A stretch of DNA of 64,000 nucleotides, from contig NC_043002.1 in the NCBI RefSeq assembly GCF_006345805.1, forward strand, positions 103,912,001 through 103,976,000, read 5' to 3'. A model generated the notes under the pieces. The model was given only the letters and a program-made list of their open reading frames with translations, made no database searches and was not told the origin of the DNA. Below, piece by piece: positions 5,943-57,500 of this stretch (positions are counted from its first letter, which is position 1; every line of letters begins with the position of its first letter). The stretch comes from Octopus sinensis. Taxonomy: Eukaryota. The translations under genes and the position numbers were made by a program.

Positions 5943-6919
5943 CGATTTATCTGACGAAAATGATTCCAAGGCGCTGCCCCAGCATGGTCGTGTTTTACTA
6001 AGTGAAACAAATTTAAGAGTAAACTATATTGCAAAGTTTTATTTCCCGGTAATGCATCGGAAACGCCACCAGATATCATTGGTCTCATACATTATCCTGT
6101 TATAATCGTATCACGTGTCCCATTGTATGCTGTATCGCACGGCTAATTCAATAATGACTATCATTAACACGACACTATTGAATTACAAGCTGAAATATTT
6201 AAATAACATTAAACTTCCCTATTACATTTCATTAATTAATTAACTGTAATTAAATAATTGGCTCAGATATGACATGGTTTGTAACAATCTGAATTTATTC
6301 CAAATGAAACATCACTATACCGTATTAATGATAAAATAGCTGACACACCATAGTGATGTGTGTAAGTATGTGTGTTTATACACTCACACAGACACACAGA
6401 CAAACACACACATTGGATTGCTGATTTAGATGTTAGGAAACACCGAATCCTGGCATTATAAGAAGCTTTAGTTTTAACTCGTTAAAGAGTTTAACCTCAG
6501 CTGACTTAGAACCAGGTTTTGACTAATTAAGTGTCGTTGTTACTGGCAATCTGAAATAAATGATGCCAAAATCCCAATGTTTGATAGGTTCTAAGACTTT
6601 TCTTTCCATTGTGTATTCAAACGCGAAAGGGCAGTTCCTAAAATAATTGTACAAGCTCCTCGAAAATTGTAGGAGCCGAAGTGAGGATCATTTCATAGTT
6701 TAGATATTTGCATAGGCCTTAATTTTAGCAACGTTCACAGGACCAGGCCTGGCTATTTTGTAAGAAGTTTGCTTCGAAATCACATGTTTCCGGGTTCAGT
6801 CCCACTGCATAGCACCAAATATATTCTAGGACTTCCAGGAATACTGATCAGCTAAACCTCTGCATCTCCTGTCGATGCGAGTACACTTTGCTTATCATTC
6901 ATTGTTTTCACATAATTGC

Positions 6920-7118
6920 AACATTATTTACATTATTTACATTTGATGGATATTTGTCCTCATCTTTGTTGTTAACACAACGTTTCGACTGATATATCCT
7001 CCAGCCTTCATCAGGTGTCTTGGGGAAATTTCGAAACTGGGTTCTCATTCCAAACGTATTTTTCTATGTTGTTATTATGATTATTATTATTATCATCATT
7101 ATTATTATTATTATTATT
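6920..7118 (-). mobile_element. Hammerhead-bearing short element family A (tail plus (AAT)n spacer)
   Basis: Reverse complement of 8890-9030 with few differences; continues into an (ATT)n tract. Confidence 0.85.
6974..7019 (-). ncRNA. Minimal type I hammerhead ribozyme motif, core intact
   Basis: Minus: GACAC-CUGAUGA-a-GGCUG-loop-CAGUC-GAAAC-GUU^GUGUU. Stems I and II pair; stem III is the loopless palindrome ACGU. Confidence 0.75.
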
Positions 7119-7648
7119 GAGTGAGAGAGCAGTTCATGCCATCAAAGTGACACTGGGGTAAAATATACGAAGCCCAATATACCCATCATGACTACCCGTC
7201 TGATAAGGGTACACAAGGCACATGCATCACAACCATATGTGCGCGACATGGTGATCTCATATCAAGATAAACAGCACTGACCTTGCAGGTGGGGCCAGTT
7301 AGAATTTTCTTCAGGTGAGTAGCCCATCCCGCTCAAACGGTCCCTGAATAAGGGTGTTTACGGATGTTGAAATAACCACCCATGTTTCCAGAGGTGAATT
7401 ATTCAAAACACCAAAGAATCCCTCTCAACACATGGCTTTGATGCTCCCTCACTACTTCTGCTCGTGATCAGAGATGCACATATTGTCAGCCACTAAGGAC
7501 ATGCTCAACTGGTTAAGGTCAAACAACTGACAAGCAAATCTGGTATTGAGCAGAATATTTGCTGTAGCCCATCTTTTATACCAAGACAAAACAATGACAT
7601 GATAACACTTCCAATCAGTTAAGATCAGAAGCCATGAGAGCACTGCCT
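7119..7648. mobile_element. Unclassified ~530-bp insertion inside an (ATT)n tract
   Basis: Complex, non-coding-looking sequence with abrupt (ATT)n borders on both sides. Confidence 0.5.
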
Positions 7649-7715
7649 ATTATTATTATTTTATTATTATTATTATATTATTATTTTATTATTATTATAT
7701 TATTATTATTATTAC

Positions 7716-8576
7716 TTTTTGTTTTCTTCTTTCAAATTTTCTTCCATTTCTTGCCGAGTGTCTTCCCGACTCCTAGGGCAAAGAAACTCATAGTATATAT
7801 TGGTAGGCCATTAAACCAACTCAGTAGTTCGTTCATTTTTTTTTTTTTTTTTTAAAGTTAAATTAAAATACATGAGCAGAACAGTTCTCACATCGACAAT
7901 GCTCTTCTCAAATAGTGTGATGTACCAGTTAGACAATCTTTTGCACTCTTGCAGGGATGGTAAGCCGGATCATTCTCATATAATTTTCGGTTCCCTTCTT
8001 GATCATTCCTAGTGCTCCTACGATCACTGGTATTGTAACCGCCTGAGATGCCACATTTTCTCAATTTCAATGAGTAGGTCTTTATATTTTCTGAGCTTGT
8101 CAAACTCTTTCGCGAGATATCTGATCACAGGGGATGCTCATGTCAATCAATAAGCAAACGTTATTGTTTTGGTCTTTCACAACATATCTGGTTATGGCTT
8201 GATGGTTCGGTCTGTATGTACTGGAAAGTCCCACAGAATGGTTACATTTTTCTCTTCAGTTACAGCTCAGGGTGGCGATATACCATTGTCGGCAGTTTTG
8301 ATATTGTAATGCCGACTTATTAGCCAGTGGAGATATTGGCCAACTCTGTCATGTCTTAATTTATACTCCACTGGTGCTAAGACTTTACATCCAGAGATTA
8401 GGTGGTCCACTGTTTCAATCATGTCGTTGCAGAATCGGCATTTTGGGTCTGCTCCATTTTTCATCACATTGGCCTGGTAGTTCCGGGTTAATAGGCTTTG
8501 GTCTTGAGCAGCCAGGATGAAACCTTCGCTCTCTGCTTTTAGCCCTGAGCTCCGCAGCCACTGATGGGTTTGCTTC

Positions 8577-8578
<2 letters not shown>
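7716..8578 (-). mobile_element. R4/Dong-clade LINE, 5'-truncated, inserted in (TAA)n
   Basis: Across frameshifts: QWLRSSGLKAESEGFILAAQDQSLLTRNYQANVMKNGADPKCRFCNDMIETVDHLISGC (CCHC knuckle), RHDRV, ILWDFPVHTDR, PD..., LLIDMSIP, KYKDL, IPVIVGALG (RLE endonuclease); (TAA)n on both sides. Confidence 0.92.
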
Positions 8579-8607
<29 letters not shown>

Positions 8608-8639
8608 GTTATTATTATTATTATCATTACTATGCCCAC

Positions 8640-8710
8640 GGGCATATGGCGTAGTGGTTAAGAGCCCAGGCTACTAAACCATAGACTCCGAGTTGGATTC
8701 CAAGCAGTGA

Positions 8711-8769
<59 letters not shown>

Positions 8770-8828
8770 TATAATAATATAATAATAATAAAATAATCAT
8801 GATAATAATAATAATAATAATATAATAC

Positions 8829-8879
<51 letters not shown>

Positions 8880-9058
8880 CAACAACAACAACATCGGAAT
8901 GAGAACACAGGTTCGAAATTTCCCAAGATACCTGATGAAGGCTGGAGGGTATATCAGCCGAAACGTTGCGTTAACAACAAACAAGATGAGGACAAATATC
9001 CGTCAAATGTAAGTAATGTAAATAATGTATATAATTCCTCATCTCTTAGATATAGAAG
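8640..9058 (+). mobile_element. Family A full composite: tRNA-like head + (AAT)n + hammerhead-containing tail (SINE-like)
   Basis: Head 8640-8714 has A-box TGGCGTAGTGG (8647) and B-box-like GAGTTGGATTC (8690); (AAT)n/(AAC)n runs ~8715-8892; tail has CTGATGA (8932), stem GGCTG/CAGCC and GAAAC-GTT (8960-8967). Confidence 0.8.
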
Positions 9059-9129
9059 TATAATTTCAACAGACCAGAATATAAGAATGTAAAAATATAT
9101 TAATAACCTTCTATAAAAGCAATTGCAGA

Positions 9130-13072: not shown

Positions 13073-13086
13073 AGTTATTATATAGA

Positions 13087-13190
13087 AGGAGCTTCTACAG
13101 GACTAGAACTGTTTCATTCAAGAGAAATCTTCAGGAAGCTTCCTGAAGATTTCTCTTGAATGAAACAGTTCTAGTCCTGTAGAAGCTCCT
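13087..13190. repeat. Perfect 104-bp palindrome (52-bp arms, no spacer) carrying a hammerhead motif on each strand
   Basis: Centred on AAGCTT (13136-13141). Plus strand 13137-13187: AGCUUC-CUGAAGA-u-UUC-ucuu-GAA-u-GAAACAG-uucuaguc-CUGUA^GAAGCU. Confidence 0.9.
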
Positions 13191-13312
13191 CTATATAATA
13201 AATTAATTTTTCTCTGCTATGTATTGAGTACCTTATTACTGTGGTTAACCCCGAATCAACCCGGGACCTACATATATATATAAACATATATATATACATA
13301 TATATATACATA

Positions 13313-15504: not shown

Positions 15505-15749
15505 TTATTCTAGATAGCCAGGTTGAAGAAACTTAAGGAATAGCGGAAAATGCTGTTGCAAAGAAGGTGAAAGTAACGGCACGGAAAAAAGGGTATGAAA
15601 GTTGGAAGCAGAAACTTCTACATGTGAAATGTGTGGGCCGTAGCAGACAAGCTGATGTAGAGCAGAAGCACAGCTGTCAGTGGCTACAGAGCTTAGGACC
15701 AAAACAAGAGAAGTAAGAGAGATTGGGAGAGAGAGAGAGAGAAAGAGAA

Positions 15750-15782
<33 letters not shown>

Positions 15783-16315
15783 AAGAAAGAGAGAGAGAGA
15801 GAGAGAGATGCTTCATCATAGTTGCTCCAGATCAAGCTTTGATCCGGAACTTAGAAACCAATGTAATGAAATATTGAGCAGACCCAAAGCTCCAATTCTA
15901 AAACGATGCGATTGAAACATTGGGCCACCTAATCTCTCGATATAAAGATTTACCACCTATAGAGAATAAATCAAGATATGACTGTGTTGATCTATAGCTA
16001 CACCGGTTGATATGTCGGCATAATAAAATCAAAACTTCTGATAAATGGTATAAGCAGTATTTTGAGTCTGTAACTAATGGGGAAAATGTAACGATTCTTT
16101 AGGACTTTGAAGTACATACAGACAGAACCATCAAAGCTCAAAAACTGGGTATTGTTGTGAAAGACCAAAGCAATAAAGTTTGTTTATTGATTGACATGAG
16201 TATACATTGTGGTCACAATATATGAGCAAAGAAGTTTGATAGGCTCAGAAAATATCAAGATCTGCTGATTGGAATTGAAAAAATGTGGAATATCAAAACG
16301 GTTAAAATAGCACTG
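15505..16315 (+). mobile_element. R4/Dong LINE 3' fragment interrupted by a (GA)n expansion
   Basis: WKQKLLH...CQWLQSLG.K [(GA)n ~15710-15808] FIIVAPDQAL...ADPK...VTIL.DF.VHTDRTIKA...CLLIDMSI...KYQDLLIGIEKMW; homologous to 7716-8578. Confidence 0.85.
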
Positions 16316-34069: not shown

Positions 34070-35640
34070 AAAAAAAAGAAAAGCAAGAAATGATAGAAAG
34101 AAAATGTTGCTTTCCTCAATAACATATGTAAAAACGAATAGAATATATATTTGCTGAGAGAAATAGAGACCTTTTGAATATAAATTTACTGTCTTTATAG
34201 AAACGATCAAAATCTGTGAGTGACAAACTCTGGTATGAATGGAGAAATTTAGTGGAAAGCAATGACCAGTTTACAGAGATACAATAGGAAAATCAATCAA
34301 TGCCGTAGAGTTTCCTTCACAGAGAATTTCGAATTTATTGTGAAGAAAACATTTAGCAGTGACATGAAGGTTACTTCGGATGCAATGTACACGGAACAAA
34401 ATACGCTTTTAATGGAGAACCCTGAGAATCGCAGAAAAGAGAAGAAAATAATTCAGTATAAGAAAGCATGCGAAAGAGATTGATTGTTGGAGATTAACAC
34501 ATAGACTGACTTTGATTTTATCACAATGGGGCGGCGCCTTATAAAGCTTAATGGAAATATATGTTAGGTTATCTTTCGTTGGAAGAAAGAAATCTGATAG
34601 CAAACATATGAATGGCATGGAAAAAAATACTATGGACCTCATTTATAACATATATACATATAACCTACAAGCTTTACCTACAGAATTACTATGATTGGAC
34701 AAATATAAGGGAATGTACGAAAGATTCTGCTGGATCCGCTGAGAAGTGGTTAATAAGTTAAACAGTTATGTTGAAGGCTTAATTGTTTTGGATGAATTTG
34801 GTTAATCTTTGACTGGATTAAAGGAAATCGTAAGATGCAGCTTTCCATTCATAACTGCTTGTGGCTTTCGATTTGGTAAGGGACCATAATAAGTGCCTGA
34901 TTCACAATCTTGACGGTGAATGCAAGAAAGTGTGATGCTAATACTCATACGGTACAGAATCCTAGACAGATATTCCAAATAAAAATCGTTTTGTGAATAA
35001 CATAAACCTATACAATTATATCAAATAACATGCAGCGTAAAATCTTGATTTGTGAAAATCGTTTATTGAAGAGCAGCCATAATTACCAAATGCTAATTAA
35101 GACTCTATTCTAATGTAGCTTAAACATTCAGTAAATTTTTTTTTTTTATGAATCGAAAAGAAATCTAAATAAAAAGTGTGTGATTGGTATAAATGAGGGC
35201 TGGTAAAAATTACTACTGCACATAATCTATTTTTGGCCGAACTGAATTAAGTTGATAAGAATACGAATAGCACGAAGTTTAATCTTGCTACTGCAAACTT
35301 AAATGAGATAGAGATGGATTTGCGTCGGAAAACGTTCCTTTTTGATTTTAAAACGACGTAAACCAAAGCCAGTGTAATAAACTATTTATAAAGAGACAAA
35401 CTTCCTCCGATGTATTATGAGAATTTCAAAGATATTCAGTGTTGGAAGAAAACCTCCAGAAGCTGAATTTCTAACATGGCAGAATTAAGAGAGTGTATAT
35501 AACACCGGAATAAAGATTATGTTCAAAGTAACTCCTTACGTGCACTCAGCATATCGCTATTTGGGAAACTCAGTTGAGCACTTGAAAGAATGAACACCAG
35601 AAAATTCCATACAAGAGGTATTCACTATGCCATGATTGAA
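34070..35640 (+). mobile_element. Very decayed RTE-like LINE
   Basis: Scattered motif remnants (ARNDRK...RDL; AFDLV) in purine-rich sequence with many stops. Confidence 0.4.
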
Positions 35641-35644
35641 CGCA

Positions 35645-36027
35645 GGAGGCGCAATGGCCCAGTGGTTACGGCAGCGGACTCGCGGTCGTAGGATCGCGGT
35701 TTCGATTCCCAGACCGGGCGTTGTGAGTGTTTATTGAGCGAAAACACCCAAAGCTCCACGAGGCTCCGGCATGGGATGGTGGTGATCCCTGCTGTACTCT
35801 TTCACCACAACTTTCTCTCACTCTTACTTCCTGTTTCTGTTGTACCTGTATTTCAAAGGGCCGGCCTTGTCACTCTCTGTGTCACGCTGAATATCCCCGA
35901 GAACTACGTTAGGGGTACATATGTCTTTGGAGTGCTCAGCCACTTACACGTTAATTTCACGAATAGGCTGTTCCGTTGATTCGGATCAACCGGAACCCTC
36001 ATCGTCGTAACCGACGGAGTGCTTCCA
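35645..36027 (+). mobile_element. Well-preserved tRNA(Arg)-like SINE (octopus OR-type by recollection)
   Basis: GGCGCAATGGCCCAGTGGTTA A box, anticodon-like CTCGCGG, GGTTTCGATTCCC B box, followed by ~300 bp non-tRNA body. Confidence 0.8.
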
Positions 36028-40067: not shown

Positions 40068-40352
40068 ACATTACATAATTTACATTCGAAGGATATTTGT
40101 CCTCACCTTGTTTGTTGTTAACACAACGTTTCGGCTGATACACCCTCCAGCTTTCACCAGGTGTCTTCGAGAGATTTTGAACCTGGGTTCTCATTCCTAA
40201 GGTATTTCGAACCCAGGTTCGAAACTTCCCCAAGACACCTGACGAAGGCTGGATGATATATCAACCGAAACGTTGTTTTAACAACAAACAAGATGAGCAC
40301 AAATATCTGCCAACTGTAAAAATGTAGGTAAGTCCTCCTCTCTTCAATATTG
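40068..40352. mobile_element. Head-to-head inverted pair of 5'-truncated family A tails
   Basis: Minus copy 40068-40208 (core CUGGUGA, mutated) abuts plus copy 40209-40352 (CTGACGA 40239, GAAACGTT 40267). Confidence 0.88.
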
Positions 40353-53999: not shown

Positions 54000-56900
54000 T
54001 TATTCTTGTAAAATATTGACAGTATGTATAAAGCTATTTGAAAAATAAGCTTTTAGCCAAAACATCTGCAGTAAACTTTCGTATGTATGGTAATGGAACT
54101 CTATAAGATACGTTGAGGTGTTGAGAAAGTAATCTTTTTAAGAATTGGAAATGATCTTGTTACTTAGTGGAATAACCTGCGCCAGATATATTTTCCGTAT
54201 AAGTCGGTATATATAAGTCAGTATATAATATAACTAACATATGTGTATCTGTTACATTGTTGTAACCGTTTTGATATGCTAAATCTTTTCGATTTCAATA
54301 AGCAGATCTTTATATTTTCTGAGCTTATCAAATTCTTTTGCCGAAATATTCTGATCATTGAGCATCCTCATGTCAATCAATAACTAGACTTTATTGTTTT
54401 CGTCTATTAAAACAATATCTCGTTTATTTGCTTTGATGGTCCGATCTGTACATACAGGAAAGTCCCAATGAATCGTTACATTTACTCACTCAGTTACAGA
54501 CTTAGGGTGTTGATTCTACGATCTGTCGGCGGTTTAAAAGGCGACACATTATCCATTGAAAATATTCGCCAATTCTGTCATGTTTTCATTTGTACTCTAC
54601 AGGTGCTAAAACCTTTCGTCCTTAGATTAGATGGTCCACTGTCTCTATCCCATCACTGCAGTATCGGCACTTTGGTTCTGCAACATTTTTCATCGCGTCG
54701 GCTTGATAGTTCCGGGTAAACAAGCTCTGAACTTGTGCAACCAATATAAAACCTTCACTCAGCCTTTAACCCTAAGCTTCGTAGCCACAGGTGAGTGGGC
54801 CTCTGGTCTACGTTGTTTGCTACGGCCCACATATTTGCCATCCAGAGATTGGTGTTTCCACCTATCAGCCAATTTTTCAAACGCACTTTGCTTTGCTATT
54901 GATTTTACTTTCTTTGCAACTACAGTTGTTGCACTTCTGTCATGCTATTAAAACTGGGCATTATGCATAAATGCACTTGAAAATTCTTTGTACTCCTTCA
55001 TAGCAGAATGAAGTTTCCTAAGTCTTTTGTGGTTTTCAACGAGGTTTAGCATCCTGTCTTTAGATGTTTCAAGATATTTCGCCCCTCTAATTGTGATAGG
55101 CTTTTTCAAATTGGATCAAGCCTAGGCCTCCTTGAATGCTGGGTAAGTAAAGACGCAAATGTCTTTCGGTGGAGCATTTTATTGCAAGTCAGCAGCTTAC
55201 GGATTTTCCTGTCAATCCTTCCTTTTTCGCACATATTCCAGTTCAAAACATTGAAACTGTAAATAACAACGGCAACTGCTAAGGAATTTTTAGCCAACAC
55301 CTTATTACGTGCACGTAACTCGGATTTTACTTGCTCGTAACAAGGATCTCACCACTGAATACTTTCGCAGTACGTGGTAGTCCTTCAAGTTTATTATCGT
55401 ATTTACCATAGAGTTTTAGGTCATCCATATAAAATAGATGACTTATTTTATTTTCGCCAATTTTATATCCATACCCTGATCTGTTAAGTACACCTGTAAG
55501 TGCATTAGGACTACGCAAAAATTAAAGGTGAAAGTGAGTCACCTTGGAAAATGCTGCAGTTGATATTAATATTTTGTGGTCAGAACTCCATTCGAGTTGT
55601 ATAATTGGAGATTCATATTCCACATTGACATGCTGTGCTTCAGGAAATTTGAAATCACAGGAGAAATTTTGAAAATATCAAACGTTTTCAAGATCCATAA
55701 ATAAGGTATGTTGTCGAACGCCTTTTTATAATCAATCCTTACAGAACTGAGAATTCCCTGTTTGTTATGACAGTTCTCAAGGATCATGCGATTGACTAAT
55801 ATTTAGTCTTTGCATCCATCTGAGCCTCGTCGGAAACCTTTATTCAGTGGGGAAAATATCGTTCTGTTCCTTAAATTTGTATGTTTTCTTCACGAGGATG
55901 GATGTTAAAATTTTATACATGGTAGATAGGCATGTTATGGGCTTCATTGTACTTCGGCAGTAGGTAATTAATACCTCTTGCTAACCAGTCAGGTGTCCGC
56001 GTTGTATCTCTCATAATTTCATTGATTAACAGGCTCATCTTTCCTGCGCGCTCGGGAGCGAGGCGAGCCATAAATTTGGCACCCTATCATTACCAGGGGA
56101 TTTCCACTTATCAGCTTTCGTGAGTGTCATCCTTATGTCTGCTATTGTGATGTATTCCTATGCTTGTTCTGGTAAGTTTTGGTAGCGTCCTTCGGTGCGT
56201 CTAATCCAATTTGCATTTTCATTGTAAGTCTTGTCATCACTACAGCTATTTTTTCTGAAGTTTTTAACGTCTTCCATAGGAAGGGGAGAGTCTTCAACGG
56301 TTATTTTCTCTTTCTCTATTTCTCTGTAGAATGTTTTCCCATTGGATGTGAACAGCCTATTTTGCTTGTAAAATATGTTTCTCGTCACAAATATTCATAT
56401 TCTTTGCGCTTTTGCTTGGACTTTTACTGTGTTTCTTTAGGTGAAAGTAGTTCTCTTGTTGAGAATCTGTATTTCTCTACATTTTTCTTCCTATTCTGGT
56501 TTTCATATCGTTTCCTCAGATTACTTCATTCTGCATTGATATATATCACCTCTCATTATTTCAATCGCTTTTCAATTTTACATTTCCAGTTTTGAATTTT
56601 TCTCAGGTTTGTATTTCTTATTTTTTCAGAGGCATACAACTGGTTGCAGTTGTCTTCGCAGCTGTGTAAATAATTTCATTTAATTCAGTGAGATCTGGTT
56701 TTAGTTCTTGTATAATTTCCTTTGTTACACAGTTTCCAATTTTAATTTGTTTTCTATTTGGGATTATATTTGAGATTTTATGAGATGGTTCATTTCCCAT
56801 GCATATTGGTGTATCTTACAACCGTAATCTTATTCAGGATCATCTGCTTCAGTTCTATCATAGACTCTCTGCGTTCTTCAGTAAATGTATAGTCTTCAAG

Positions 56901-57239: not shown

Positions 57240-57500
57240 GCCTAATGCATATCAAGTTCTCCGACAATCACTGGTATTGTAACCGTTTTTAGATGCACAT
57301 CTTTTCGATTTTGATTAGAAAATCTTTGTTTTCTGAGCTCATCAACTTATTTTTCCAAGATATTATGATCACAGAGTATGCTCATATCAATCAATAAGCA
57401 GACTTTATTGTTTTGGCCTTTCACAAAAATATCTCGTTTATTTGCTTTGATGGTCCGGTTTTTACATACTGGGAAGTCCAAAAGAATCATCACATTTTAT
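57240..57500 (-). mobile_element. Additional R4/Dong RLE-domain fragment
   Basis: Homologous to 8020-8250 and 54260-54480. Confidence 0.85.

Follow-up and report, generated by a model that had tools for sequence, protein, structure and literature searches.

The Poseidon element PAc of Anolis carolinensis is a Penelope-like element (PLE) in which the pseudo-long terminal repeat (pLTR) is composed of an untranslated region (UTR) and the start of the open reading frame (ORF), with a hammerhead overlapping the ORF start; its reverse transcriptase (RT) has two start sites 30-40 nucleotides (nt) apart, giving two 3' ends, and its targets are AT-rich (PMC11167929). Here, we describe a PLE insertion of similar anatomy, but with a tRNA-like UTR, in 64,000 nt of the Octopus sinensis genome (contig NC_043002.1, positions 103,912,001 to 103,976,000; the whole stretch is hereafter the window). 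No tRNA-like UTR or RNA polymerase III (Pol III) promoter is described for PAc in the accessible text, and the ATG of the octopus element lies 28 nt upstream of hammerhead stem I, whereas that of PAc lies at stem II (PMC11167929).

The minimal hammerheads of metazoan PLEs share with the octopus family a short stem I, an extra base between positions 9 and 10.1, a G10.1-C11.1 pair and a palindrome at 15.2-16.2, and they also occur in solo and opposite-strand copies; stem II of the octopus motif, which is predicted only, has 5-6 bp, whereas the Schistosoma motifs have 7-8 (PMC4209133). SM-alpha and Sj-alpha of Schistosoma are likewise short repeats in which a Pol III-type promoter is followed by a type I hammerhead (PMC6765202, PMC8490949). 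Their hammerhead is canonical and active, they form head-to-tail tandems, and the available text identifies no autonomous element with the same head, whereas in the octopus family the motif is minimal, the arms are inverted and the repeat is identical with the PLE's own pLTR. Animal non-LTR retrozymes are also short, hammerhead-bearing and related to PLE pLTRs, and their mobilisation by PLEs has been proposed, but they differ in forming tandem arrays and circular RNAs (PMC7229834; bioRxiv 10.64898/2026.07.22.740005); the terms tRNA and Pol III are absent from the available main text of the preprint. The TRIMp3 elements Cassandra, Helenus and Ajax have a small-RNA-derived Pol III promoter within the terminal repeat, but constitute a non-autonomous LTR class whose autonomous partners lack the promoter, whereas in the octopus the protein-coding element itself has a predicted tRNA-type promoter (PMC10886601). 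Non-autonomous Chlamys PLEs such as MRC1 are short, PLE-mobilised and end in a common 3' sequence, but belong to another PLE clade, and no tRNA-derived head is described for them in the accessible text (PMC8557442).

A full-text literature search, with Repbase, Dfam, subscription journals and preprint supplements outside its range, returned no description of a PLE with a tRNA-derived pLTR. An earlier note, made from the letters of the window alone, had read the locus as a Pol III-transcribed short interspersed nuclear element (SINE) with a PLE tail and knew of no standard description of that combination. The joining of a Pol III promoter to a hammerhead had already been reported for SM-alpha, and it is the tRNA-headed PLE for which no description was found. 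Many unclassified SINE and Penelope families appear in a recent repeat annotation of octopus, the available text of which lacks the word ribozyme.

The unit formed by the tRNA-like head, an (AAT)n spacer and a 'tail' is the pLTR of a 2.6-kb Penelope/Poseidon-type PLE. The distinct non-autonomous element with a borrowed tail, as proposed in the earlier note, is not what is found, since an autonomous-type PLE has the identical head, spacer and tail as its pLTR. Judging from the sequences, we consider it reasonably likely that the tRNA-like head in the pLTR of this decayed PLE is an internal Pol III promoter, and that RNAs starting at the sequence TGCCC were copied by the element's own RT into thousands of SINE-like insertions.

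The locus L024, selected by its tail, has a GIY-YIG C-terminus upstream, and its use as a query yielded 29 further loci. The end of the ORF is followed by the head in 28 of these 29 GIY-YIG-selected loci, and the tail is also present in 28. Among 15 RT-selected copies examined, 12 reach the stop codon; all 12 run on into the head, 11 of them as far as the tail, and an inverted pLTR piece lies 5' of nine of the 15 RT-bearing long copies. The parts of the unit follow one another in the order ORF stop, head, (AAT)n, ATG with the first ~55 codons, and the remaining ORF, with the pLTRs in partial tandem. Among fetched loci chosen in several ways, 133 heads have a complete 3' end, and the tail follows within 1.3 kb in 121 of them; the gap is <100 nt in 102 of these 121 units. 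Two of the remaining 12 heads show the tail on inspection and two enter a nested 530-bp element; a head joined to another shared body was sought among these 12, and none was found. These results indicate that head and tail travel together genome-wide, as the earlier note had supposed, and that the autonomous PLE sharing the tail, for which it had suggested searching, is represented by the copies with an RT/GIY-YIG ORF.

The RT domain of the ORF is recognised by Pfam (RVT_1, E 1.2e-9), and the copy L092 has an almost complete ORF, in which RT and endonuclease motifs are present. In the translation we read DKG, YVDD and VYSIPC...YKGET, which we take to be the motifs so named; the GIY-YIG endonuclease of the family copies was assigned from motifs read in translation and not from a Pfam score. 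The protein is 68% identical over 551 amino acids to P0001 and 36% identical to an Anolis homolog. A zinc-finger-like linker between RT and endonuclease marks Neptune and Nematis and does not occur in Penelope/Poseidon (PMC8557442); when such a linker was sought by reading that of L165, no CxxC cluster was seen. Judged by motifs and structure, and not by a tree, the family is a member of the Penelope/Poseidon-type PLEs.

In the window, positions 6921-9059 are a single PLE insertion with a 12-bp target-site duplication, the (ATT)n of which was later split by two other insertions. Its parts are as follows:

6912..6923, no strand: left target-site duplication, 12 bp, with one mismatch to the right copy
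6921..7119, minus strand: inverted 5' arm, consisting of the pLTR coding part with the hammerhead (6921-7051), the pre-ATG piece and (ATT)n
8631..8646, plus strand: 5' hairpin TATGCCC-AC-GGGCATA; the element proper starts at TGCCC, and the TA ahead of it is a typical feature at fold-back junctions
8633..8716, plus strand: tRNA-derived head, the UTR of the PLE, with the A box at 8647-8657 and the B box at 8690-8700
8647-8657, plus strand: A box TGGCGTAGTGG, a sequence match at this site
8715..8893, plus strand: (AAT)n/(AAC)n spacer, boundaries approximate
8896..9059, plus strand: 'tail', the N-terminal coding region of the PLE ORF, with ATG at 8899-8901 and including the 30-40-nt terminal extension
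8927..8972, plus strand: minimal type I hammerhead motif, predicted to cleave after 8967, with stem I damaged in this copy
8932-8938, 8939, 8940-8944/8955-8959 and 8960-8967, plus strand: hammerhead pieces CTGATGA, extra A, stem II and GAAAC-GTT, respectively
9060..9071, no strand: right target-site duplication, pairing with 6912-6923

The A box, spacer, hammerhead core and hairpin are present where the earlier note had placed them. Its B-box-like site is also correctly located, but the sequence there is mutated in the window copy (GTTGGA, compared with GTTCGA in the family). The tail copy at 8896 carries two substitutions in stem I and a 1-nt frameshift, and 13 nt preceding its ATG are missing. 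By BLAST, the window contains a single head and four tails (8896-9058 plus, 6921-7051 minus, 40071-40197 minus and 40209-40326 plus; E 1e-34 to 1e-48). The number of head-to-head tails that the note had counted thus holds, with those at 6921 and 8896 being the two arms of one insertion and the other pair belonging to a second one:

40068..40326, no strand: second insertion of the same family, with inverted coding-part fragments at 40071-40197 (minus) and 40209-40326 (plus)

This second insertion was cut off before reaching the head and has none; a target-site duplication was looked for around the pair, and none was found. Its hammerheads are damaged, with a core change in the 40071 copy and stem changes in the 40209 copy. 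A chance match is excluded for the head, of which the first 25-mer has 681 exact copies in the 2.72-Gb genome, versus 0 for the reversed control.

The tail is derived from Penelope and not from a long interspersed nuclear element (LINE), in accordance with the earlier reading. Read from its ATG (window 8899), it shares the frame of the ORF start, and its translation can be aligned with the N-terminal end of P0008, a 52%-identical homolog, across the residues encoding the hammerhead core (E 1.4e-7 in a search of 120 proteins with composition correction off; E 4e-4 for the pairwise comparison with this correction on). Both subfamily variants within the tail sit at third codon positions, and copies of the junction between tail and ORF start are common. 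In L224, L226, L225, L228 and L234, the first 230-260 nt of the ORF are joined straight to the head or tail; these copies are internally deleted derivatives or template jumps.

The insertion marks also bear out the proposal that PLE machinery made the copies. Target-site duplications of at least 9 bp were found at 52 of 148 insertions, compared with 6% of 400 mismatched-flank controls, and range from 9 to 18 bp. Inverted parts, the frequency of which the earlier note had suggested counting, are present in 84 of the 148. The 3' ends form two classes ~40 nt apart, with 85 of 206 tail matches, counted without de-duplication, ending at tail positions 140-159 and 99 at 180-188. As in PAc, the target sites are rich in A and T. 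Partial-tandem pLTRs, an inverted 5' copy and an optional 30-40-nt tail are all found, as in PLEs. The pLTR, the overlapping hammerhead, the inverted arm and the target duplication are thus known PLE anatomy, and the tRNA-like UTR and the sharp 5' boundary are unusual; the predicted tRNA-type promoter inside the pLTR, together with this copy boundary, would be a feature beyond that anatomy.

The copies end sharply at the 5' hairpin of the UTR. Exact non-CpG 20-mers occur 4,938 times in mid-head and 896 times at the ORF end, 57 nt upstream, and correction for exact-match rates (32/119 and 27/60) gives estimates of ~18,000 versus ~2,000 copies, whereas 88% survival, i.e. a 12% loss, is expected from the background truncation within the ORF (0.0022 per nt, 29 loci). 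At the 681 exact head starts, the ORF-side exact 9-mer is present in 87, and the fold-back 9-mer gives 127 matches, many counted on both strands; ORF sequence lies upstream in six of the first 30 head-start matches (28 loci). Among 29 tail-selected loci, nine stop at the hairpin, nine stop within the head, one continues, and ten, including L024, have no sense head. Most head-containing copies terminate at the head or inside it. In 30 loci examined for the ORF start behind the upstream pLTR, four of the six copies reaching the hairpin stop at or in it. Some hairpin-end junctions (L015, L019, L103 and L123) were formed by microhomology and not by fold-back. A random 400-kb sample contained three insertions, all inverted pairs and none with an ORF; because this sample is so small, the copy number is known only to an order of magnitude.

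In RNA-seq, the depth decreased from mid-head to the ORF side from 1847 to 586, from 1363 to 308 and from 1291 to 330, and remained level for the next 320 nt. These values come from three runs of one study, with standard cDNA libraries of a possibly related species, of which ~6% of each run was read. A search of sequencing runs returned no RNA holder of the element among the matches listed. In the same three runs, but not in the contig run, opposite-strand joints were observed at L177 (682/734 and 702/886), which are most simply inverted genomic copies within expressed genes of the sampled animal.

Almost the entire UTR is tRNA-like. The head can be aligned over its full length with tRNAs of the genome (Z scores against shuffles reach 7.5), and among the 31 distinct tRNAs sampled, which cover few isotypes, Arg-TCT gave the best raw score. 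The family retains consensus A and B boxes, although the cloverleaf is lost; ARAGORN, at a relaxed threshold as well, found no tRNA in the window or the head. The closest match outside the family is the head of a resident tRNA-SINE, L151, which scores 66, compared with 52 for the best sampled tRNA. Since L151 outscores every sampled tRNA, it is possible that the head was captured from a tRNA-SINE. Other abundant tRNA-headed SINE families distinct from the PLE head are present at 35640-35770 of the window and in L144, L150, L151, L161 and L164. The last codons of the ORF include a TATA-like sequence, TTTATAAG, ~30 nt before the G of TGCCC (e.g. L073 and L068); TBP binding would be expected at this position in the case of a Pol III start, and the sequence is absent from solo copies. 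The absence of T4 runs from the sense strand in 2,307 ORF positions was considered as a sign of Pol III transcription and dropped (P 0.14-0.25).

The following mechanism would account for the copies. RNA from any pLTR, either the downstream one of a full copy or a solo one, would start ~14 nt upstream of the A box. By analogy with PAc (PMC11167929), the PLE protein would bind the ORF-start RNA and begin reverse transcription at two internal sites, which would give the two 3'-end classes with no need for hammerhead cleavage. On reaching the end at the hairpin, the cDNA would fold back on it and prime the second strand, producing palindromic junctions, or its end would be joined by microhomology; either event would make the inverted arm. 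The RNA of a solo pLTR would thus be a complete retrotransposition substrate: solo pLTRs would retrotranspose in a SINE-like manner because the 5' end of the RNA, likely made by Pol III, lies at the hairpin, and solo copies may have acted as secondary sources. The same promoter in the upstream pLTR would read into the ORF. A further, tentative proposal is that the coding PLE exchanged its own promoter for a captured tRNA-type Pol III promoter, the sequence serving both as promoter and as a PLE-mobilised SINE and the 2.6-kb RNA being a Pol III transcript; this is possible but doubtful.

Several results weigh against a Pol III start at the hairpin and copying by the element's own RT. About one-fifth to one-ninth of the copies do run into the ORF, as full copies necessarily must, and the hairpin, lying exactly at the boundary, may be partly responsible for it. 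In the three RNA runs, there was no pile-up of starts at the head, and the reads were equal on both strands, which looks like passive read-through or an unstranded library; nor did read ends pile up at the hammerhead cleavage site. The lack of T4 runs is not significant and is shared by the adjacent non-LTR piece. No intact active copy was seen among the best candidates; many of the best RT matches contain stops, and a full open frame was not seen. In 152 hammerhead copies of this one young family, no compensatory stem changes were found and the core was no better conserved than its flanks, both of which are expected of dead copies. Finally, the promoter of the Drosophila virilis Penelope, according to the available text, is an internal, TATA-less promoter of the RNA polymerase II (Pol II) type (PMC2377424).

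A rather unlikely alternative is that the insertions are passive relics, namely ordinary 5'-truncated PLE copies with a head from an old tRNA or SINE insertion, in which long read-through cDNA folded back at the hairpin. The exact fold-back junctions described above, the loose ends observed at the hairpin in each of the three RNA runs, and the agreement of short and long copies in age and subfamilies are consistent with such an origin, and truncation and inversion are normal for PLE copies (PMC8557442). However, the hairpin has a stem of just 5 bp and a loop of 2 nt, and at a similarly shaped hairpin in the tail (28-39) coverage drops only slightly, with 150 copies at position 40 and 137 at position 20, in a sample skewed towards long tails. 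In addition, several junctions end at TGCCC without fold-back, and the family retains both promoter boxes intact despite the lost tRNA pairing. Coding RNAs such as the 2.6-kb one are normally capped Pol II products, and the boundary could instead mark the start of an internal Pol II promoter, as in the D. virilis Penelope, with the tRNA-like sequence co-opted or incidental. This explanation is improbable: the distance of the hairpin start from the A box is that expected of a type 2 Pol III promoter, and the UTR contains nothing beyond the 84-nt head, the repeat and ~23 nt. A pLTR with an internal Pol II promoter nevertheless has a precedent (PMC2377424), and it has been argued that autonomous partners must use Pol II (PMC10886601).

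That a separate SINE lineage gained the PLE tail and amplified apart from the PLE is highly improbable, even though short copies outnumber ORF-bearing ones and the L151 head is the closest match outside the family, since long RT-bearing copies have the identical head, both haplotypes occur in short and long copies with similar tail divergence (4.3-4.8%), and no head was seen with another shared body. An independent SINE with a LINE tail is ruled out by the head following the ORF end and by the tail being in frame with the PLE ORF. Overall, the family is decayed, with about 4-5% divergence, and the long copies differ from their majority sequence by 4.4-6.1%. No separate SINE lineage is evident because short and long copies share haplotypes and age, and a separate SINE subfamily was not seen. 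SINEs are by definition Pol III elements that depend on LINEs (PMC3531059). With ~300 bp, a tRNA-like head and A and B boxes, the unit has the size and head required by SINEBase (<700 bp; PMC3531059), whereas its partner is a PLE, to which it belongs, and its haplotypes and age are common with those of the long copies, as judged from a small sample and not from a tree. The unit would therefore be SINE-like in its working if the promoter is real, but falls outside the SINE definition in partner and independence.

For the hammerhead, the family fits the minimal type I motif of PLEs, with the CUGANGA and GAAA-NUH core, stems I and II, the extra base between 9 and 10.1 and a palindromic stem III. 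Stems I and II are mostly paired in the 152 copies (82-89% and 90-95%, respectively), and no covariation was seen within this one young family. Core position 7 varies (T67/A30), and the exact core and stem III are retained in 44 copies. In the L003 monomer, the hammerhead fold has -10.3 kcal/mol, compared with -11.9 kcal/mol for the minimum-energy fold, so it is not the minimum; the motif is predicted to cleave only as a dimer. Scoring against Rfam, also suggested earlier, did not recover it: no tRNA or hammerhead was present among the matches listed (in one scan, the best 150 of 227). Head-to-tail tandem arrays were absent from the loci examined, which contained only solo copies or inverted pairs, with no genome-wide tandem search made. 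At their N-termini, P0008, P0023, P0039 and P0043 contain peptides (PDD...PKR or ETS) that would allow a hammerhead to overlap the coding sequence, so that the overlap may be detectable from protein alone in distant PLEs; a metagenome scan found no pLTR DNA of distant PLE homologs. A second PLE family was sought as a control in the genome, and the top matches obtained with a distant homolog mostly led back to loci already given by the family search.

Two other elements are nested in the (ATT)n of the 6921-9059 insertion:

7119..7645, minus strand: multicopy 530-bp element, not PLE; the same element lies in the spacers of L007, L026, L041 and L057 at 91-96% identity
7717..8565, minus strand: 5'-truncated non-LTR element with zinc knuckle and restriction-like endonuclease motifs in translation

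No obvious reading frame is present in the 530-bp element, which is probably the 3' end of a TAA-targeting element. The element at 7717-8565, which matches Pfam zf-RVT with E 2e-4, below the curated cut-off, is presumably Dong/R4-like, a label given from its motifs and the TAA target. Dong targets TAA (PMC3812793). Three further relatives of this piece, ~76% identical, lie at 15664-16315, 54260-54804 and 57255-57498 of the window. The (AAT)n spacer of the PLE is a frequent landing site, with a 530-bp or Dong/R4-like element in at least six other loci (L007, L026, L041, L057, L058 and L097). Elsewhere in the window, at ~13075-13200, a near-perfect palindrome of ~125 bp with a 1-nt loop adjoins a (TA)n tract, and is possibly a fold-back insertion of another element.

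If the tRNA-like head is a promoter and the PLE moved the unit, the SINE partnership would extend beyond LINEs to the third class of retroelements, and the capture of a promoter into a pLTR would give a SINE-like element at once, since the RT recognition site is already in the pLTR. If the full-length RNA is also made by Pol III, the family would exemplify an autonomous retrotransposon driven by Pol III, a combination deemed unlikely for LTR elements (PMC10886601). Repeat libraries may label the roughly 20,000 insertions as unclassified SINEs. The family provides a genome-scale record of how the 5' inversions of PLEs are formed, with a defined fold-back site and a short test substrate.
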